Assembly (NCBI GenBank): GCA_001662655.1
Contig: KV460229.1
Reading direction: 5' to 3' (one strand)
Origin: Pseudogymnoascus verrucosus
Lineage: Eukaryota
Length of the DNA stretch: 64,000 nucleotides
A program made the translations under genes and the position numbers. Of the stretch, positions 28,829-47,483 are shown one piece after another. Within the stretch, counting starts at the first letter, position 1. Every line of letters starts with the position of its first letter. Under the pieces are notes generated by a model, which was given only the letters and a program-made list of their open reading frames with translations, searched no databases and was not told the origin of the DNA.

Positions 28829-28888
28829 ACATACGACCATAGACTTAAGAGAATTAGGCATCCCGTCTGCTCCGCCATACACAAGCTT
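28829..28888 (+). rRNA. 5S rRNA gene, 5' half only (interrupted)
   Basis: ACATACGACCATAGACTTAAGAGAATTAGGCATCCCGTCTGCTCCGCCATACACAAGCTT matches the 5' ~60 nt of ascomycete 5S and the copy at 40448-40566, then diverges (weak similarity may run to ~28906). Confidence 0.88.
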
Positions 28889-28968
28889 GTAATTCAGTAG
28901 ACTAATGCTCTTAATCATGCTAATAGGCATAGCGTGGAATCTAAGCCCCTTACTGCCTTAAGGGTTAA

Positions 28969-29033
28969 CGTAAGGGTAAGTAGGGTAAGCTAAGGCGTAA
29001 GTAGAGTAAGTAGGATAAGTAGGGTAAGGTAAC
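28969..29033. repeat. Degenerate 9-bp tandem array (GTAAGTAGG)n
   Basis: GTAAGG GTAAGTAGG GTAAGCTAAGGC GTAAGTAGA GTAAGTAGG ATAAGTAGG GTAAGG. Confidence 0.7.
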
Positions 29034-33320: not shown

Positions 33321-33546
33321 TTCTTATAACAGTTCCGTATATAGTTATAAGTATAAGAAAGGTAGGAGATTCTCCTGTTTTTATACAATAAAGCCACTTC
33401 CTAGGGTTAGAGCTGCTAAATTCAGCAGGACGTAGTTGCTGCTTTACATAGCCTCTACCTCTCGCTAAATCTAAAGGCACGTGAACGCAACTCACATCGC
33501 AGCCCTACATCGGTATTAAGTAATAAATTGTATGTATTGCTGACTA

Positions 33547-35575
33547 ATCATAGGTGGAAGCGAGTGCGTCTACTTACTTACGAGAGGAAGCAAGTACGTC
33601 TACTCAACTTGCATATGTTTACTGCTACTCTTTACTAAAACTTTAGACATTCCCCTACATAGTAATTTATATAGTAATCAAATGTAATTCATTTAATGGA
33701 AGGGACACCTTTATTAAATGCCTGTGAATGGCTAGTAGCAAACCCCTCTAAATCTATAGGTGCTACTAGTTGGATTTTTAAAGTCCTAAAGTCTTCTATA
33801 CAGTTAAGAATTACCTAAGCAGCTCTAAGGAAGCCACCCTATAGAGGTTAGAATAAGGTGCTTTCTACAGCTTAAATAGAGGCCCTAAAGACCTAGATTA
33901 CAGAGCAATACCACCTAGGGCTTAGGGCTAATAGGCATATGGTCTACGGGGTAGTATGCCACCTACGGAGCCTACTACCTCCACTGACATAGAGCTGGCT
34001 TACTAAATATATTAAGAGGGAGCTTATGGATTTTCACTTTATTACTATAAAGCCTATTGCTTGGCAGCGTACGCAAGCTCATGAGCCTATAGATGTTATT
34101 AAGTGGTTTAAAGAGTACACAGAATTAGTACTACAGCGCCATATAAATCTAGAGTTAATCTAGAATATAGATGAAACTGGTTTTAGGATTGGAATTCTAG
34201 GAGGTAAGAGAGTTATAGTCCCTAGAGCTATAAAGCAGCTCTATACGCTAAGTCCTAAGAATCGTATATCTATTACAATTATAGAGGCAGTATCTGCAGC
34301 TAGACAGAAGATTCTACCTATACTTGTTGTACTAGGTAAAATTCATATGGAATCGTAGTACCCTAAAAACCTCTATGGGGACGAGCTGATACTACTCTCT
34401 AAGACTGGCTATTCTAATAGCCAGCTTGCTCTACGGTGGCTACAACACTTTATAGAGCTTACTGCTCTACACAACTAGGAGAATCCTAAGCTTCTACTCC
34501 TTGATTCTCATGGGAGCCATAGGAGCGATGATTTCGTCATTCTTACTGCTAAATATCACATCATTGTATTAGCCTTTCCTAGTCACCTTACACACGTTTT
34601 ACAGCCATTAGACGTAGGAATATTCCAACCATATAAGCACTAGCATAGGCAAGCTGTGCTCCGTGCCATACGAGAGATGGATATTACCTACAACCTACCC
34701 TAATTTATGAGAGATCTCCCATAGATGCAGGAGCAGACCTTTAAGGAATCTACCATACAATCAGCGTTCTAGAAAGCTGGAATCTGGCTAATAAGCTGTA
34801 ATACAGCCCTCGAAAAGCTATGTACGTACTCGAGCCCTACGCAACCTACAGAGCCTACTACACCTACCCTACCAACCCAGCCTGTAACACCTATTCCTTC
34901 TACTTTCTAGGGTGTAGAACAGGGCCTACAGCGGTGGAAGGAGCGGGTTCCGGAGGCCTTCAGTAGCCCCTCTAGGCAGAGCTACGGCAACTAGCTTACT
35001 AGTGCAGCCTAGGTTCTGGCTGCCGGCTAGCTCCAGCAACTTGACCTACAGGCTATTCGGCAGCAGGTTAAGAACTCGAAGAAGAAGCGGGGGGGCCGGG
35101 GCCGGCTCTAGCGTGGAGGTGAGCTCCGGGCTTCTGAAGCCTACGAGCTTCAGGCTAAGAAAGCTGAGCTTCAGGCCTAGAAGCTCGCTGCCACCGAAGC
35201 TCGTAAGCTGAGCCGGGCCCAAAACCAGGCCTGGAAACAGCTCGAACGAGCAGCAACTGAAGCTCGGAAGCAGGAGCGAGCCCGGGAGCGAGCCCGGAAG
35301 AAGAGCCTGGCTCAGCTCACTAAATTAGGCCTCCCAATTCCTCCGGAGTTGGAAGACCCAATTACTAACCTAGATTCTGAATCTGAGAGCCAGTATGAGA
35401 GTGCGAGTGAGGGTGGGAGTGGGAGTGGGAGTGAGGAAGTGATAATTTCGTAGAATTGAAATTTTAAGTACTTTTACATACAAATTACTATGGTTGGGTA
35501 CTTACGGTCGCAATTTGAGAGGACGCACTCGCTTCCTCTCGTAAGCGAGTGGACGCACTCGCTTCCACCTACGAT
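33547..35575 (+). mobile_element. pogo/Fot1-family DNA transposon (2029 bp), RIP-mutated
   Basis: ~55-bp TIRs ATC(A/G)TAGGTGGAAGCGAGTGCGTC..., TA TSD. Transposase relic NIDETGF...LLLLDSHGSH...LQPLDVGIFQPYK. Confidence 0.93.
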
Positions 35576-36005
35576 TATGTAATTAACTACTAGGAATTAC
35601 CGATATTCCGTACGGAGATCACGTGAGATCATGTAACTATTACAACAATCGGTTACCCTTCAAACGGTTCCTAGTTCCTAACTCCTATGATTTGCTTTCT
35701 GCTTTCCGTTTCCCTCTTTTCTACTTAACCTAAGGTACTACTTGCCATCATGATTATAAGGGCCACTACACAATGGACTACCTAGCCGCTCGGACTGGCT
35801 ACTTGTATAAATACCTTGCGATCCTGTCGCCAACATCCAGCACTAGCTCTTCTAAGAAGCTTACCCTCTTACGTTATCGAACAAGTCAGCCTAATAGATC
35901 CTTGTCTCCTAAAGGCAGGCTCCTTATGACTCTGTCTACAGATCTCTATGTTCATTTTGTTATCCTAAGCCTATTGTTGAGTTGCCCATTATGTCTACTA
36001 AACAA

Positions 36006-38541
36006 ATGGCTAACTAGCAACTGCCTACTCTAAAGCAGAACATAATAAGTTTTGTCACTAAATGAACAAGACATGCTCAACAGCTAAAGAAGCCTAAGCG
36101 CACTGCTAAGGACTACTAGGCTATAGGTTAAGAGCTCAACACTAAATCTTAGAAACCTAAGGATGCTAAAGCCATAAAGGAGAATGTCTAAGGCATATAG
36201 CGCAAGTAGACTAAGTAAGTTAACAATGTCCCCCTTAAGGCTCCTATCACTTACCTAAGATAAGGTTCTGCGCTTTTTAGGGTGTAGACAATGTGTAAGG
36301 AGCTATTTAACAATACAATAGGGGGGCAACTATATTGTTCCTATACTTTATCTGTAAGAATTGTAAAGTTAAGGCATTCAACTCTATCTACTAGTACCTA
36401 CTTTAGTTCAAATAACTCTACAATTAGATTAATAGGTGTTATATAGATACAAACAATATAAAAGAGGTGTTTAAGGTATACTCTTGTATTTAATGTTACT
36501 TATAGAAGATATAACACTAATGCTGTATATATAGTATCTAGATATAACCTTAGCAGATAAATTCAAACTTAAACAAATAATAAAGGCTAAACTAGTGTTA
36601 GGAGCAGATAATATCCTTCTTCTCCTTACTTACCTCTAGGCTTAGGATACCTCTATATTTCTAATTAAGGACTAACAGTTAGCACTTATAGGTGTAATAC
36701 TCCTTTCTATCTATACTAGTTGCTAACCTGCTAAACTAGTTAACACCTTAAAGTATGCATTTAAAAAGACTACCTCTTGTAAACGCCTATATATAGAAGT
36801 CTAGGATGCTGTTAATAAGTAGATAAAGATAAGTGTGTAGATAAGGGAGATAGATTAGATAAGCTGAATTATTAAGGGCAAGAGCTATAGGATAATGAAA
36901 ACAATACTAAATATAACAATAATTACTTTAACCCTAATACTGTAGAATGTAAATATAAGTGTCTATGCTATAAGGATATCTGTCTCTAAATTGTTTAGAA
37001 CCTTATATAGGGAAAACAAGACTTTATAGGAATAGAGATCACTTTCTCCTATTACAAAGGTGCTAATAGAAAACCAAAACTGTATGTCCCTCTATAATGC
37101 CTCTCTCTTATCCCAACTAACTTTATAACTTTAGTACAACTTTTCTCTTTTATAAAGAAGCTCTTCCTATACTTTGCTCTATTAGCTATGTCTTAGCTAT
37201 TGCAATAAAAGATAATGCAATTGAGGTTAAAGGCTTGTTGTAAGTAGAGCCTTTTTTTGCAAGTCATCTACAGCACCCTATTAAAGCTGTACTAATACAC
37301 TAAAGGCTAGAGATGCTTAAAAGGCCTATATTCTATTAGGCTGTATACATATGTAATATGTTCTATATATTAGAGTAGAAGGCTCTACACTACTTAACTT
37401 ACACTTACTACCTTAATTGTCTTAGCTAGGCAACTAGTTTTAAGTAGAAGTTAACAAGCTACTGTTTTTGTAGAGGCATAGGAAACACTGTTAATAGTAA
37501 ACTTCCTATTAATTATAATTTACTCTAACTAACAAGTGCATAGGGGCTGTAACAACAGCAGTTTGCAACTAGATACTAAGACATAATCCCTAGACTAGTG
37601 TCTTTTGTAGATTATACAACAATAAGAAAGTTAGGTTTATTATTTAAGATATAGTACTAGACTAGCCTACTAATTCTGGCTTTCTCTAGGCCTTTATACA
37701 TATAAGCCTCACTTATAATCCCTATGCACCTTAAATAGTGCCTAATAAGGTTTGCAATGCTCTCCTGCCTAATCTAGAGCTAGTGTAGCTTAAGCTTAAG
37801 CAGTAAGAGCTTTGCTTAGAACTTAAGCATTTATATAGACACATATTTATTTAGGGTTTAATTAGAACAGAAGCTAGTGAAGAATATTGTTAATTAAATA
37901 GACAGATTGCTATAGTAACAAAGATGCTTAAGTAAGAGCTTAAGAGGGAGTACTACTAGGACTACTTCTACTATATCTACAACAAAGAGCTTAAGAAGAT
38001 CATAAAGAAGGTTATAGTTATAGCGCTAATATATATTAAGCTAGTTGTTAAGCACTAGCTGCTAGAACAGACCTAGCTTTAAGAAATCATATGCAACCTC
38101 TTAAAGGATCTCAATCTATACAACATTGCTATATAATAGATCTATGCTATTAACACAATAGTTGCACTATCTTGTTGCTAAGAAGTCTAGTGTTATAAGT
38201 TGCAGCTAAGCAAATTGTCTTTAGCATCTTCTCTTAGAGAGTCCCCTTTGCTAAAGGAAGAATTGCCTGTTCCTGATATTTTCCCTCTTAAATGTAAGAA
38301 AACTCAGTGTATATTTTGTATTAGTAACAATTAACAGAGTTATAAAAGACAAATGCAGACCTTCTCTAAACCTAACAAGATAATGGACTATATTAAGAGG
38401 CATTTAGAAAGGAATACTATAGGGGCATTTAAATGCTGCTATCTAGTGTACAAGGCAGAAGGGGTAGTTCTGAACAAAGTTGTGCTTTTTAAGATTCACG
38501 TTAATGAGGTGCACAAGATTAAACTTAGAGATAAACTATAA
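36006..38541 (+). pseudogene. DUF3435 tyrosine recombinase (Starship captain-like), RIP-inactivated, multi-exon
   Basis: Read-through translation gives YTSC*PAKLV (~36712), KCLCYKDICL, SYCFCRGIGNTVN (~37460) and ILRHNP*TSVF..LY (~37575). C-terminus FPLKCKKTQCIFCI...IMDYIKRHL...FKIHVNEVHKIKLR matches the DUF3435 layout as I recall it. Confidence 0.85.
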
Positions 38542-40401
38542 CGTACATGTATAGCAAATGTGCAAAACAAGCGAATGTACAAAAATATCGCAACCACCCT
38601 ACCCCCTAACTAAACTCGATAATTCTACCACAACATAACATGCCTTTTAAAAATGACGAGAGAGAGTTGACCTTAGCTATCTAAGCTATTTAAAGAGACC
38701 CTATGCTACGCCTTTACGCTATAGCTAAGACCTATTCTATAGACTACTGCAAGCTTACTTGCCGTCTACATAGTATGCAACCACGACGTGATATTATAGC
38801 TAATTTACGAAAATTGTCAAACCTAGAGGAATCAGTCCTTGTTCAACACATACTTAACCTAGCTGCTAAAGGATTTCCTCTATAGATGTCTATTGTTAAA
38901 GATATAGCAAATCGACTACTTGCAACACGCAACGCGCCACGCGTTAGGTCGCGTTAGGCTTCAAACTTTGTAAAGCGCCACATAGAGCTCTAGACACGCT
39001 TCTAGCGCAAATACGACTACTAGAGGGCTAAGTGTGAAGACCTAGAAGTTATCTGTGGTTAGTTTAAGCTTGTATAGAATACAATTGCAAAGTATGGAAT
39101 TAACGATGTAGATATCTACAACTTTAATAAGACTAGGTTTATGATAGGTGTTATCTTAACTGCTATGGTTATAACAAGCTTAGATAGGCGGGCAAAAGCA
39201 AAGAAAGTACAGCCTAGTAATTAGGAATGGGTTATAGTAATCTAAGGCGTTAGTTCTCAAGGCTAGGCAGTACTGCCATTCATCGTTGTTACTAGTAAAA
39301 ACCACCTTGCATCTTAGTATAAGAATAGTGGATTTCTAAGCGATTAGGTAATTGCTGTTATAGAAAATGGCTAGACTATAAACGAGAGAGGCATGGATTG
39401 GATTCAGCATTTCAAGAAGCATATAAAGGCCTAGAGTGTTAGTAGTTATCGCCTCTTAGTCCTTAATGGTCATAAGAGCTACCATTTAGATAAGTTTAAG
39501 GAGTACTACAAGGAACACAACATTATAACTCTCTACATGCCTGCTCATTCTTCCTATATACTCTAACTGCTTGATATTAGCTGTTTTAGCCCTTTAAAAA
39601 AGGCTTACGGTCGGCAAATTGAAGATATAATATAAGCTTATATTTCTTACATTACTAAGGATGACTTCTTTCCTGCCTTCTACGCTGCATTTAACATTGT
39701 AATGATAGAAAGTAACATTTAAGGAGGCTTCTAAGGTGCTGGACTTCTTCCATTCAACCTAAATAGAGTGATCTCTACACTTAATCTTAAGTTAAAGACA
39801 CTAACACCTCTAAGCTCCTACCCTAGTACCGCTTAACCTTAGGTTTCCTAGACGCTAAACAACCTAATTAAAGCTATGTCACAGTCTACATTTATTAAAA
39901 CTCGGATTTCACACCATTAAAATAGCTCTCTAACCTTAATCTATGCAGCTATTGACTAGTTTACAAAGGGCGCATTGCAAATAATGCATTAATTAGCATT
40001 ATTAAAGGCAGAGAACCAAAACCTACGACAGGTAAATGAAGTACTAAGCAAGCGCTAGAGGGCAAAAAAAACACGCCTACGGCAAGGAGGATCACTTAGT
40101 TAACAGGATGCGTAGGATCTACAGGATGAGAGGGACGTTATGCAGTAAGTAGAGCAGGAAATAAGGGCAAGTGGTAGTTGTAAGCCGAGGGAAGAAACCT
40201 ATGCTCGTTGCTATGGAAAATGTAGTGGGACTAAGCATAATGCGCGCACTTATTAGATTAAAATAGACACGTCTAAGGAAGAGGTCTCTAAGTAGTTTTA
40301 ATTGATTTCTAGTGTTGTGGTAGATTTATTACAATTCATATAGGGTAGTTGCGATATTTTTGCACATTCGCTTGTTTTGCACATTCGCTATACATGTACG
40401 T
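38541..40401 (+). mobile_element. pogo/Fot1-family DNA transposon (1861 bp), RIP-mutated
   Basis: TIR ACGTACATGTATAGC(A/G)AATGTGCAAAACAAGCGAATG at both ends, TA TSD. Transposase relic from ATG 38640 (IYNFNKTRFMIG, LVLNGHKSY, C-terminal knuckle relic). Confidence 0.94.
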
Positions 40402-40447
40402 TATACATCTTGAACAACTAGATATTAAAAAATATATATATATATAT

Positions 40448-40566
40448 ATATACAATAGTAGGTATTCGCTAGTAGTCACCTACCTAACTACTAATCTACT
40501 GATCTTAAGGTTATGTATAGTAGAGCAGATAGGATGCCTAGTTCTCTTAAGTCTATAGTTGTATGT
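40448..40566 (-). rRNA. 5S rRNA gene, full length (119 nt), RIP-mutated
   Basis: The minus strand reads ACATACAACTATAGACTTAAGAGAACTAGGCATCC...TTAGTAGTTAGGTAGGTGACTACTAGCGAATACCTACTATTGTATAT. It is followed by (TA)n and a T6 run resembling a Pol III terminator. Confidence 0.9.
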
Positions 40567-41724
40567 AATAATTACTTGCGTATTAGGAGATATATGCTAC
40601 AGTGAGAACTGTAATCTAATACTGTTAAAAAGCACAGAAGGTAGCTGCTTATTCTCGACGGTTACCCTTCTTTCTAGTCCCTGTTCCGTCCTCGTAAATG
40701 TAATAGGCTGCCTTATCTTTCTCCCCTTTAACGAAAACGCTAATAACTTAAGCTTTGTCTGCCTTATTATATGAAGACTAATGGACTAGTAGCACCGAAC
40801 TCCTCTGCTTCCTATAGGTAGTAATGTCTGTCTCTTACAACGCGTGTAGGGCTTTCTAGAGAAGCAGATCTCTAGCGGCTACGTTAGGGTTAGTAGAGTT
40901 TCGTGTCCATCGCTTCTATGTAACAGAAGAAGTGGGAAGATTTTAGAGGAGGGTTATTACTTTGACTAGGAGACAAATTTAATTAGATGGATCTACCTAA
41001 AGACAAATGATTAAAGCCTTATTTAATAGGTGAGGTAGTTAACGTTAATGTGAAGTCGAACGATTAATAGTAAAGGAAGAAGTCTATGGAACCTTAAAGA
41101 TGGAATTAATTGTAAGGATGAGCGCTAGGACCACCTAAGGGTAACTCGTCTAAGGTCTTTATAGTATAGCTGGTAGCGTTCACTATGTCTAGTACACAAC
41201 TAGGCATGACCTAAATGTGCTACAGGTTTATTAGGGTTAGCATGTAGGTAGTAGCACTGCTCCTGTTATAGCACGCCTCCTATGCTACCATAAACAGGGT
41301 TCTTACTAAACTAACTAAATCTAGACAAGTTAGGCTATATACTCATGTCTCTTATATAAGCCACAGACGTTGCAGTACTTTTATATTTTACTGTATAGTG
41401 TTAGGCTTTATAGTTTACAGATCTCTTATAGTCAGAACAATTTTGCGCTTAAAATATATAAGTTAAAAATATCAAATAATACGCTACAACAAAACACAGT
41501 CGAGTTAAGGACAAAGGTTACTATGTGTACATGCTATAATCTAGCAAGACCTACAAGCAACTACTGTTATTAGTAAAGGTAGTAGATAGGAGGAATGATT
41601 AGTTTAGAGATAAATGTAGAACCTTTAAGAATTTATTTACGTGACATATAAAGCCTCTTAGTATACGAGGTAGAGGGCGGGGTTGGCAGGAACTATAGTG
41701 AAGAGGTAAAACTTTAATTATTTT

Positions 41725-44700
41725 TTAATAGCTTTATGATACCTTTATGGCTATAGTCTTAAGCTATAGATAGCAGCGATCTACTGTGCTTATCTATAGC
41801 GTCAACACTAATCCTAGGGGCAGCGAGAAGCTAGCCTACAACCCCCTCGTGCCCTTTAATTGCAGCCTACTAGAGTGGCGTCTAGCCTTCATTGTCTGCT
41901 GCATTAACGTTGATCCTAGGGGTAGCGAGTAGTAGGCCTACGACATTTCTAAGTCCTAAAAATGAAGCAAGACGGAGGTTATTATATGTGTTCTAGTTGT
42001 GCTGCGAATAGATTGAGTTTGCGAATGGACTAGTTGACCTACGAGCTAACTAGTCTACCTATGAATATTGTAGTTTGCAAACGGACTAGTCTGCCTACGA
42101 ATTATAGAAGTAGCGGTGTAGGAATATAGCAGTGTAGAAATAGAAACCTCAATTCCTTTGCTTTACTCTCTCTTTTATTATATCAACTGTTAATAATGGA
42201 TAATACTATTGCTTCTATTAATCCATTTCCTAATGATGTGTGCACTGCTTTCTAAGCCTATATCTAAAGCGAAGATAGAAGCCAAACTAGAAACTAGGAG
42301 CGGATTACACCTATAAAGCAGTAACGGATATACACTTTCCTCAACTCTCTACATATAAAGGCAATAGATGCTATTAATGCTCGACTTAAGCACTATGCTC
42401 TTATAGAGTTCTATATTACTTAGGATAAACTCTACTAGAATAGCAACACTACATATAAGGCATGCTATGTAGTTTAAGAGAGTGAAGCATTTAATCTTAT
42501 TATTAATAAGCACCTACAACTTCTACATGTAGGCTGAGATAAAGTATAGGCAACAGTTTAACAGAAATACTACGGTATTAATAAGCATAAGGTTGCTTTT
42601 ATTCTTAAGTAGTGTAAGAACTACACTCTTAATTAACTAAATACAACAAAGCTCCATTAGTCCCTATTATAAGTGGAAGAGCGTGGGAGAGGGTTTAAAT
42701 TAACCTAATTAATATGCACCATAAGCCTTTAGGGCAGTATAAATGGATTCTTTATATAAAGGATCACTTCTCGAAATATACACAGCTATACCCATTGAAA
42801 AGCAAGCATGTAGGGCCTATTGTAGACTGCTTTGCTCTCTTTATTACAGCGTTCTTACCTCCTAAGATTATGTAAGCTAATAATGGGAAGGAATTCAAGG
42901 GGGCTCTACTAATTCTACTATGGAAGTATAGAATATAGGTAGTAAATAGAGCACTACAATCACTGCAAACGCAAGGCCTAGTTAAGTAGGCAAATGGGGT
43001 TGTTAAAGCAAAGCTATAGGCATGGAAAATGGATTATAGGTCTATAGAATGGAAGGATAGGCTACTAGAAGTTATGCTTGTAATGAATACCTAAATCCAC
43101 TCTACAATTAGGTGTGCGCTAGCTAAGCTTCTATTCTGAGACAGGAGCTCTTATATTAACTAGCTTAATAGCTAGGCCTAGAAGGATCTCTTAATTAGAG
43201 TTAAGTAGGAAGACCTAATGATGGCACTAATATTTAAGAGTAAGCTCTAGTCTAAGCTTGAGTCGGAAGCTCTAATCGACCCATAGCTCTAGCAAGAGCT
43301 AGAGCTCAAGCTTAATTCTAAGCTCTAGGCTCAACCTAGAACTCGAGCTAGAGCGTAGGCTAGAGTCCACCTACACTAAGCCCCTAAGCTCAGCTCTGGC
43401 TCTAAGCTTAAGCTAGAGTGAGAGCTCGATTCTAGGCTCTAATCTCAAGCTAGAACTTAAGCTAGAGCTAGGCTTAGAACTTAAGCTTGAGCTTAGGCTA
43501 GAGTCTAGCTTAGAGCTAGACTTAAGCTTAGGGGCTTAGTAGAGCTAGGCTCTAGTTTAAGCTCTAGCTCGAGCCTAGAGCTTAGAATTAAGCTCTCTAG
43601 CTCTAGGCTTAATTCTAAGCCTAGATCTAGCCCTAAGCTTAGGCTCGAAATAGAGCTTAATTCCGAGCTTAATTCCAAGCTCAATTCTGAGCTCTGTCGT
43701 CGAGCTCCTACTTGAGCTCAAGAATTAGAGCTCGAGCCCCTAAGCCTATAATTGAGCTCTCTAGCTCGAGGCTCAATTCTGAGCCCAGCTCTAAGCTCGA
43801 GCTAGAGCTAGAGCAAGAGCTTAATTCCGAGCTCTAGCGTTAGACCTAGGCTTAAGTGCCAGCTTAGCCTAGGACTAAGCTTTAGGCTACACCTAACCCT
43901 GTAATTAAGAGAGCTATAGCAGCTACTTAAAGAGCAAGGGTTTCTATGATATGTAAGTACACTAAGAAGCATAATATCTAGCACTTTAAGGTTAGAGCTA
44001 TAGTCTCTATTAAGGTTCCTTAAGAGGATAGAACCTCAACTAATAATAAGAGGCTATTTGCACGAATTCTAGAGGAGCCTTATCCTTATAGATATTAGGT
44101 TCTTACATACTCTAGTATTATACAACGCCTTATCCCTACAAAATCACTTAGAGTTGTAGAGCAAGCTCTATGGTCTAATATCATTATTCCTACTTCTACA
44201 AAGCAAGTAACGCTAGGGCTTATAGCTAGAGAGGCTTCTATAAGCGCATAGGTTAGAATATCATGCTAATGTAAAGGGCAGTGTAGTACAAAGCGCTGCT
44301 ATTGCTATAAGGAAGCTAAGGAGTGTAGTGTACACTACTATAACGATGATTATAACTGTAGTAATTTATTAGGTCTAGCTACTTATATAGAAATAGCTCT
44401 AGTTAAGAGGCCTCGTTAGAAACGAGCATAGGTAGACACAGTAGGAAACGTAGCTATATAGATTAATTAATTACTTCTATAATATAATACAATTCGTAGG
44501 CAGACTAGTCCGTTCGCAAACTACAATATTTGTAGGTAGACTAGTTGGCTCGTAGGTTAACTAGTCCATTTGTAAACTTAATCTATTCACAGCACAACTA
44601 GAACATATGTATTAACACGGACCCTATACCTAGTATTTTGACAAAATACTAGCTTCTAGCCTATGTATCTGTTAGCTTGAACATTACAGAGTTTAAAGCC

Positions 44701-45911: not shown

Positions 45912-47483
45912 TTATAAAGTATACTTGTAATCAGGATGATGATCGCCCAACGCCTCCCTCTGCTCTTCCAATGGCAGGTGTGCAACATCGTTTAGTAAGT
46001 GCTCCCTATGGCTCACCTTCTCTCGGTTCAGAGATTTAAGCCAAACCAGGTTTGCAGCTAGCAATACTACCGTCACTACGCAGAAAGACAGGTTGAGCTT
46101 TGCCGCAAACGCGTAGTGTGGAGCGTCTTTCTTAGGATATATCCATGTGCTGAGAATGCCGCCTGCGTTAGTCATGATGAAGCTGAGAGCGACTGCCGTG
46201 GCGCGCCGCATATGGGAGGCTGAGTTGTTGGGGATCCAGGATATCATAGATGGTGCAGAGGAATATACTCCAATAATCAGGAAGCACAGCGCCGTATACT
46301 TTTGTCTAAAGCTTTTAGCAGTTAAGAAGAGCGCAAAGCCGATAATAGCGACTAGTGTGGTGGTTATTGCAGTTAGGCCTCGCTGTTGGTAGTGATCTGC
46401 CGTATAAGCCAAGATCATCGTAACGATGAAAGCCAAGACGAAAGGAGGTACGGTAAGAAGCTGCGTATTGGTTGGGTTGAAATTGAGAGTCTGAACGATG
46501 GTAGGCGTGAAGTATGCTAGGCCAAAGAGACTGTAACCATTGCAGAAGAGGGCGATCACGTTTATCCACACATGTAGGTCTTTGAAAGTAGAAAGTAAAG
46601 ATTTCCACGAGAACTTTGCCCCCTCGACAGAGTTTGCATCGAGAGTAAGTCGGTAATCGCAGTGGTCAGCCTGTGCCTTCGTGAAAGTCTTCACACCTTG
46701 TGGATTGTTTGGCATGGCCCAGAAACACAGGGATGCGAAACAGACGGTAAAGAGTCCTTCTAGGAGGAAAATCCACTGCCATCCGTGCATGTTGCCAATG
46801 CCATCCATTTGCTGAATAGCGGCGGTAAGGAGACTAGAGAAGGCGCCAGAGAGAGCAGCGGCGGAGAAAAAGAGGGCAATCCTAACTTGCAGCTCATGAG
46901 GCCGGTAGAAGCCAGATAGATAGAGGACAATGCCTGGAAATAGGCCACCTTCGCAGAGACCGAGGAAGAAGCGACATGCAAGAAGGCCTGAGTACGTCTT
47001 TATCTGGGATTGAAGGGTCGTCACAATACCCCATGCTAGCACCATCCCTGGAAGCATTATCCGCGGTCCAATCTTTTTGAGGACGAGATTTGACGGTAAC
47101 TCAGCCGCAATATATGGCACGTAGGTAACGGTGATGGCTGAAAAGGGGGTTAGTCCCTGAAACTTTCCATATATCTTTCTTGGGAGACAAAGGGGGGGCT
47201 TACCAATTTGATACTGGGTATCGGAGATGCCGAGATCCTTCTGGAGGCCAGCAACTCGAGCGTTTCCAATATTTGCTCGATCTAAAAACGCCAATAAATA
47301 CATCGAGGCCAGAAGAGGAACCAGCAGAATATCCAGCCTAAACAATGTTTTCTTATCAAATGAAGGGTCAAAATAGTGGCTCAGACCCTCCTCAGTCTTG
47401 GAGTTTGGCAGAGCACTTTCGTTGCGAGCCATCTCTAGTTGGTCTATGTCCATCTTACCGTTCGTAGTATCGGCGATTGTCAT
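45912..47483 (-). CDS. MFS transporter, ACS/Dal5-Tna1 family; 66-nt in-frame intron 47138-47203
   Basis: LAFLDRANIGNA, ELPSNLVLKK, LGLCEGGLFPG, GWQWIFLLEG and C-terminal DHHPDYKYTL. ORF is open. Confidence 0.88.
   Translation of the reverse strand: MTIADTTNGKMDIDQLEMARNESALPNSKTEEGLSHYFDPSFDKKTLFRLDILLVPLLASMYLLAFLDRANIGNARVAGLQKDLGISDTQYQIGKPPLCLPRKIYGKFQGLTPFSAITVTYVPYIAAELPSNLVLKKIGPRIMLPGMVLAWGIVTTLQSQIKTYSGLLACRFFLGLCEGGLFPGIVLYLSGFYRPHELQVRIALFFSAAALSGAFSSLLTAAIQQMDGIGNMHGWQWIFLLEGLFTVCFASLCFWAMPNNPQGVKTFTKAQADHCDYRLTLDANSVEGAKFSWKSLLSTFKDLHVWINVIALFCNGYSLFGLAYFTPTIVQTLNFNPTNTQLLTVPPFVLAFIVTMILAYTADHYQQRGLTAITTTLVAIIGFALFLTAKSFRQKYTALCFLIIGVYSSAPSMISWIPNNSASHMRRATAVALSFIMTNAGGILSTWIYPKKDAPHYAFAAKLNLSFCVVTVVLLAANLVWLKSLNREKVSHREHLLNDVAHLPLEEQREALGDHHPDYKYTL

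Follow-up and report, generated by a model that had tools for sequence, protein, structure and literature searches.

What is a full-length 5S rRNA gene doing directly behind the captain gene of a Starship? The question is raised by a 64,000-nucleotide stretch of Pseudogymnoascus verrucosus DNA, henceforth the window, which corresponds to positions 310001-374000 of contig C24 in the 30.2-Mb fungal assembly G000, where 5S genes are dispersed. The captain, a DUF3435 tyrosine recombinase gene inactivated by repeat-induced point mutation (RIP), was located at 35991..40413 (plus strand) by tblastn with protein P0002 and by Pfam. The 5S sequence (40448..40566, minus strand) is convergent to it. The best explanation overall, which we consider quite probable, is that a minor-type 5S gene was captured as cargo by a Phoenix-type Starship and became a docking site for 5S-targeting Starships. 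A heritable module of captain and 5S gene in a Phoenix-type lineage is real; it is dead in the window, and it is an insertion site for other Starship families.

Rfam detects a single 5S match in the window (RF00001 at 40447-40566, minus strand; 47 bits versus a cut-off of 38), in which model positions 1-120 are all covered. From the major 5S type of G000 it differs at 22 positions, and C>T or G>A changes account for 20 of these. The remaining two differences (T26C and G57C) define, together with C54T, a minor variant of which unmutated copies are present in G000 on contigs C27 (two), C31 (two), C59, C3 and C44. Minor-variant copies also occur as pairs, convergent and 290 bp apart at C27:165174-165699, and in tandem 205 bp apart at C31:17-341. 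Relative to the intact minor-variant gene on metagenome contig L163, the window copy shows 20 differences, 19 of which are C>T or G>A (14 in CpA). Its helices are not intact in the predicted fold, and its folding energy, likewise a prediction, is -20.2 kcal/mol versus -35.8 kcal/mol for L163. Judged by its sequence, it is a dead pseudogene. The first-pass annotation had described a complete 119-nt 5S gene convergently oriented about 45 bp behind the captain; length, orientation and proximity hold, but the gene is a RIP pseudogene, complete in length only.

The last codons of the captain are split by a RIP-mutated DNA transposon of the pogo/Fot1 type (38541..40401, plus strand), and its stop codon lies at 40411-40413. 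The transposon has 61-nt terminal inverted repeats (TIRs; 58/61 identical), a TA duplication on both sides and a DDE_1 transposase (E 5e-17), which confirms the insertion noted in the first annotation, from where the name Fot1 is taken. With it removed, the 3' end of the 5S is 34 bp from the captain stop and 44 bp from the TA duplication; for any given point, the probability that a convergent 5S piece lies no more than 300 bp away by chance is about 2-8 x 10^-4. Alignment with L163 and with contigs C6, C44 and C2 identifies the intervening 40414..40447 as a remnant (34 of 291 bp) of a captain-5S spacer, in which a (TA)n tract and the T-run that terminates the 5S are retained. As the similarity of the window to its paralogs ends a few bases past the captain stop, the short gap is explained by local deletion of approximately 257 bp of this spacer. 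On the other side, the 5S is preceded by a leader (40567..40595, minus strand) that it has in common with the cargo copies in L163, C2, C33 and C52 (16-20 of 20 nt alike versus at most 14/20 among 30 other 5S copies). The leader pattern occurs at only four places in G000 with no more than one mismatch, and at one more with three mismatches.

The same module is preserved in L163, where 291 bp of spacer separate an intact captain (97% to P0002) from an intact, convergent 5S gene (75.8 bits) of the same minor variant and with the same leader as the window copy. In G000, a convergent 5S sequence stands behind the captain 3' end at three of five loci (window, C6 and C20); two short captain fragments (C27 and C2:129k) have no 5S behind them. 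The first-pass annotation had proposed asking whether orthologous captains are also followed by a 5S gene, and this is the case in L163 and in the C6 and C20 relics. Because variant, leader, orientation and spacer are all the same behind the intact captain of L163, the 5S is best regarded as cargo travelling with the captain and not as a chance neighbour.

The element to which the captain belongs has its left end at 33380..33514 (plus strand), where homology with L161, L163, L193, C20 and other G000 copies begins with TTTATAC and then AATAAAGCCACTT; the DNA there is AT-rich and RIP-mutated. Close captains all start at TTTATA(C/G)AATAAAGCCACTT. The region between left end and captain (33515..35647) consists of later insertions, namely a TIR element (33545-35577) within a short repeat, which are missing in C20 and L163, where the sequence is contiguous. 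After their removal the captain ATG is about 480 bp from the left end, i.e. the captain is located at the 5' end of its element. None of 15 left ends lies in a 5S gene, and the DNA upstream has an AT content of at least 60% in 11 of the 15. RIP accounts for much of the decay of the captain, 496 of its 663 differences from L163 being C>T or G>A. The proteins most similar to the captain come from Pseudogymnoascus (89% and 85%, measured with the C20 paralog), followed by those of Rutstroemia and Sclerotinia. The C20 paralog is 89% identical to OBT74038, which, like APA11274, is listed as fam01 (Phoenix) in the accessible part of the PMC11162782 supplement. By these best hits, rather than by a tree with reference captains, the window captain is assigned to the Phoenix family (family 1). 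The accessible text of that paper gives TTTACA as the repeat of the Phoenix type element and describes its sites as mostly AT-rich and often in transposons.

Ten loci of G000 join 5S sequence to the left end, captain, spacer or leader of a Phoenix-type element, and in none of them is the 5S intact. The window retains a whole, RIP-mutated 5S. Captain and spacer are followed by the last 16 nt of a 5S on C6, and the C20 captain is followed at 1.34 kb by 5S nt 27-80, the weakest relic. On C3 and C94 the left end is fused directly to 5S nt 1-80 and nt 8-80, respectively. C44 has 80 bp of spacer and 5S nt 16-119, C71 has 5S nt 57-119 plus spacer, and C2 has the end of the spacer, a 5S with a 6-nt deletion, and the leader. 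Finally, C52 retains 5S nt 1-50, the leader and a match of 96% to L163 over 265 bp, and C33 retains 5S nt 1-62, the leader and a further 702 bp beyond the 5S at 85%. Five further 5S pieces (C102, C50, C53, C14 and C2:279.8k), whose link to the module is unclear, were kept out of this count. The public run X2 contains the mutated window locus piecewise (96-99.8% alike), including 40493-42672; among the joints listed, none skips the Fot1-type insertion or represents an empty allele. The X2 data show an inherited relic and do not reveal an earlier state of the locus. Public runs with small shares were not counted as evidence.

Regarding C20, the 5S remnant was also considered as a chance likeness at the end of a glycosyltransferase-like open reading frame (ORF). 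This was dropped, given a match of 43/49 nt and a segment 1 kb further on that matches the region upstream of the C52 copy. The ORF itself (C20:431130-431478, minus strand), presumably SUR1/OCH1-like, has a DXD motif and runs directly into the remnant. Truncated 5S copies that end at nt 80 were seen at C3:233313, C94:1599, C20:431124 and C53:121657, and might reflect a further target or microhomology with end A, described next.

A genome full of 5S-targeting Starships is what makes a carried 5S gene work as a docking site. The window itself contains one of their ends: the 5' half of a major-type 5S (nt 1-61, with T26, C54 and G57 and 4 differences in 61 nt; 28829..28889, plus strand) is cut after CAAGCTTG and followed by 'end A' (28890..29011, plus strand), a RIP-mutated end that matches ends on C6 and C52. 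The end-A motif is present at 68 places in G000, and at most of the 30 loci viewed it follows a 5S half cut at nt 61. In the end-A group, the captains (C52, C25 and C27) sit at the other extremity of the element and run antisense to the 5S. Of the seven hits of the C52 captain, six were looked up: four are listed as fam06 (Enterprise), at 44-51% identity, and the two best are absent from the table. The end at 28890 is thus probably of Enterprise type, and it is distinct from the element of the window captain; the Phoenix-type element is nested in debris behind it. Neither a second end or 5S 3' half of the end-A element nor its captain was found on C24.

Four of the ten cargo relics are cut by ends of 5S-targeting elements, namely by end A on C33 (at nt 62) and C52 (at nt 50), by end B on C71 (at nt 57), and on C44 at nt 16. 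The family at C44 leaves 5S nt 16-119, and the same end is present at C20:317k and C4:270k. The suggestion that the 5S is a landing pad for nested Starships is in this way borne out as an outcome, with two 5S-targeting families involved. Most likely, this docking role is a by-product of capture and not a selected function. The C2 copy lacks the target core owing to its 6-nt deletion, which is possibly the scar of an excision. The 5' half of the C52 5S is of the cargo type and its 3' half has a host-like tail resembling L026, which suggests exchange between insertions at different 5S genes.

Several side observations concern the two 5S-targeting families. In the second one, 5S nt 16-119 stand behind a common end at L080 (C44:66.9k), L082 (C20:317.6k), L084 (C4:270.6k), L123 and L218; at L123 the same 5S is also cut at nt 61. 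The load of end A is heavy: about half of the examined major-type 5S genes are broken at nt 61, and head-to-tail tandem insertions were seen at L107, L108, L120 and L131. At L112 (C6:549832), L119 (C22:445196), C17:224806 and C25:6367, the end-A motif lies approximately 50-60 bp downstream of the 3' end of an intact 5S, past the T-run. Such copies are possibly elements that insert just behind the gene and leave the 5S unbroken. The first bases of end A (e.g. TAGTTCAGTGGATT; window 28890-28910, L117, L118 and L135) resemble 5S nt 62-75 (AGATCGGTGGATT), i.e. the end mimics the target arm that it replaces.

A number of points weigh against the reading of the 5S as captured cargo that became a docking site. 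Metagenome contigs were scanned with a captain alignment, which yielded 37 loci; the module with a 5S was found in 1 of 37 by blastn and in 1 of 36 by Rfam (L191 left out), L163 being the sole match. Behind the L161 captain (93.5% to L163), one of only two near-complete close captains, similarity to the spacer ends after about 100 bp and no 5S follows within 2 kb. Captains at 78-81% (L164 and L167) have no 5S within 10 kb. The module copies share ancestry and represent one event, not repeated ones. Several relics are linked by 45-80 bp of flank only, and no X2 piece among those listed spans captain and 5S. The right end of the Phoenix-type element was not found up to the end of C24 in a search for inverted-repeat motifs. 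Finally, between L163 and six G000 relics the 5S differs at 9/407 sites and the flanks at 74/674 (transversions 6 versus 38, p 7e-4), but the six comparisons all share L163 and are not independent, and the 3' half of the 5S is identical in all types. With these limits, the lower divergence of the 5S points to purifying selection or gene conversion. With respect to L161, a tree built from transversions only, chosen as blind to RIP, places it within the 5S-bearing clade (support 90-96). On the simplest reading, the 5S was probably captured once, in a Pseudogymnoascus lineage, and later lost in L161.

The most serious alternative, which we nevertheless consider unlikely, is that the cargo 5S has been kept by selection, either as a docking site that lets the Phoenix element acquire cargo from 5S-targeting Starships or as a source of working 5S genes whose target is changed (TAACCTTG in place of CAAGCTTG), about half of the major copies in the genome being broken. 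It is favoured by the conservation of the 5S beyond its flanks and by the L163 copy, which has almost the folding energy of the major type (-35.8 versus -35.9 kcal/mol) and retains a T-run terminator. Among 81 exact matches (34 of 115 were left out), breaks at nt 61 affect 39/73 copies with G57 versus 1/8 copies with C57. This contrast has a p value of 0.057, or of 0.13 when only breaks beside end A are counted, and target immunity of the minor variant was dropped as an interpretation since the difference is not significant. Moreover, the minor variant is also present in apparently host settings (C27 twice, C31 twice, C59), not one cargo relic in G000 is intact, L161 has lost its 5S, and cargo copies are still hit at nt 57-62. 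It is similarly doubtful that selection maintains a working 5S where captain and cargo meet in the Phoenix lineage, for use as a portable integration site at which 5S-targeting Starships dock, hitchhike and swap cargo.

Capture as cargo also has to be weighed against the 5S being host flank, in that the element repeatedly landed beside minor-type host 5S genes, or captain and 5S are host DNA that was duplicated without transposition. This would agree with the missing right end and with the sequence past the 20-30 nt leader, which differs among the window, C2, C33 and L163. It is made very unlikely by the left flanks, which differ at each copy right up to TTTATA(C/G), as transposition predicts, by a spacer common to different genomes, and by the matches that C52 and C33 show beyond the 5S. 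In addition, RIP-marked, cargo-like DNA extends beyond 64000. RIP marking is strong at about 28.9-45 kb of the window (TpA/ApT 1.3-1.9 versus 0.64 in the left flank) and milder past 64 kb.

It is hardly credible that the window captain is responsible for the split 5S at 28829 and brings along a compensating copy, or that the inverted 5S pair delimits a captain-only unit, although the two sequences lie on either side of the captain within 12 kb. The Phoenix-type captain did not split that gene because its own left end is at 33380 and the junction at 28890 is end A of a different, probably Enterprise-type group; the position of end-A captains, their antisense orientation, the fam06 hits listed for the C52 captain, and a match between P0002 and the C52 captain of only 48 amino acids (E 1e-4) likewise rule it out as the splitter. 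The two 5S sequences had been annotated as the same type, but the split half is major (T26, C54, G57) and the copy behind the captain minor (C26, T54, C57); the latter is unbroken at nt 61 and adjoins no element end. The ideas that the element carries the gene class it disrupts, that the copy compensates for the element's own insertion, and that the pair bounds a minimal unit fail with this: Phoenix-type elements do not target 5S genes, and the two 5S belong to different elements. Independent insertion of a dispersed 5S beside the window captain, for which the first-pass annotation expected orthologous loci to lack the gene, can be set aside although G000 contains no fewer than 43 whole 5S sites, or 115 when halves are counted too, given the same variant, leader, orientation and spacer behind the orthologous captains in L163 and C6.

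According to the history that we propose, a Phoenix-family lineage in Pseudogymnoascus would have picked up a host 5S gene of the minor type together with its leader and terminator, which came to lie about 290 bp behind the captain and to face it. The gene has been copied along with the element, as shown by a spacer, variant and leader that recur at many loci and in a second genome. The element inserts at TTTATA(C/G) in AT-rich DNA, as its left ends show, the 5S being neither its target nor a repair of its own damage. As long as it was intact, the 5S probably was expressed and evolved under purifying selection or gene conversion, judging from its divergence below that of the flanks. Enterprise-type elements (cutting at nt 61) and the second family (cutting at nt 15/16) have inserted into the carried 5S, as the cut relics show, and these nested insertions may have exchanged what lies behind the captain. 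The window element presumably landed in transposon debris inside an Enterprise-type element. Subsequently, in whatever order, some 257 bp of its spacer would have been deleted, two DNA transposons would have arrived and RIP would have inactivated the element, including its 5S.

Beyond the 5S, the start of a cargo ORF (40864..41078, minus strand) is 78% identical to C52:121632-121830; this ORF is also present upstream of the C52 cargo 5S, and the C52 sequence matches in part the region behind the captain in L167. A TIR element of 2.6 kb (41978-44616) has arms of 129 nt (90%) and a repetitive tract inside, with a relative at C20:465-467k. Amid RIP-marked cargo, an unbroken transporter-like ORF of 523 amino acids is located at 45912-47483 (minus strand), where local RIP indices look host-like.

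A Starship that transports a 5S gene is a concrete route by which extra 5S targets could reach accessory regions, one family moving the landing site of others. Such transport can build nested elements, reshuffle the cargo behind a captain and enrich 5S genes at hotspots. If the 5S were indeed a selected portable site, some Starships would disseminate the insertion targets of others, and the existence of 5S-rich Starship hotspots would be explained. For annotation, a 5S gene beside a captain need not mark the insertion site of that element. The idea of 5S transport is directly testable in existing Starship catalogues.

As far as the accessible portions of the literature extend, 5S targeting, nesting and a 5S-enriched hotspot have already been published (PMC11162782, 10.1101/2021.12.13.472469, 10.1101/2024.06.28.601215), and no report of a 5S gene as Starship cargo was found in a search that lay outside subscription papers and bioRxiv supplements. 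The element in the window resembles Phoenix Starships (Gluck-Thaler and Vogan 2024, PMC11162782) in its DUF3435 captain in first position, its nearest named proteins in fam01 and its AT-rich, transposon-derived sites, and its left repeat TTTATA(C/G) resembles TTTACA of the Phoenix type element. It differs by a 5S rRNA gene as first cargo, which has no parallel in the accessible text of that paper. Both the 28890 end and the ends by which cargo copies are interrupted are of the kind known from the 5S-targeting families Enterprise, Arwing and Voyager (PMC11162782; 10.1101/2021.12.13.472469). The Voyager paper, in its accessible part, describes two variants of the 5S, with insertions in just one of them. 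As described there, these families break a 5S gene, whereas the element of the window captain transports one. Cassandra retrotransposons (10.1101/2023.07.14.548913) also hold 5S sequence in a mobile element, in their long terminal repeat; in the available description this 5S-related stretch is a promoter, whereas in the present element captain and 5S are separate, the latter being an entire gene that has its own leader and terminator and points towards the captain. The 5S-enriched Starship hotspot on chromosome 3 of Aspergillus fumigatus (10.1101/2024.06.28.601215) is alike in that extra 5S copies promote nested or clustered insertion. In the accessible text of that study the 5S copies are treated as a property of the locus, whereas here it is a Starship that moves the target.

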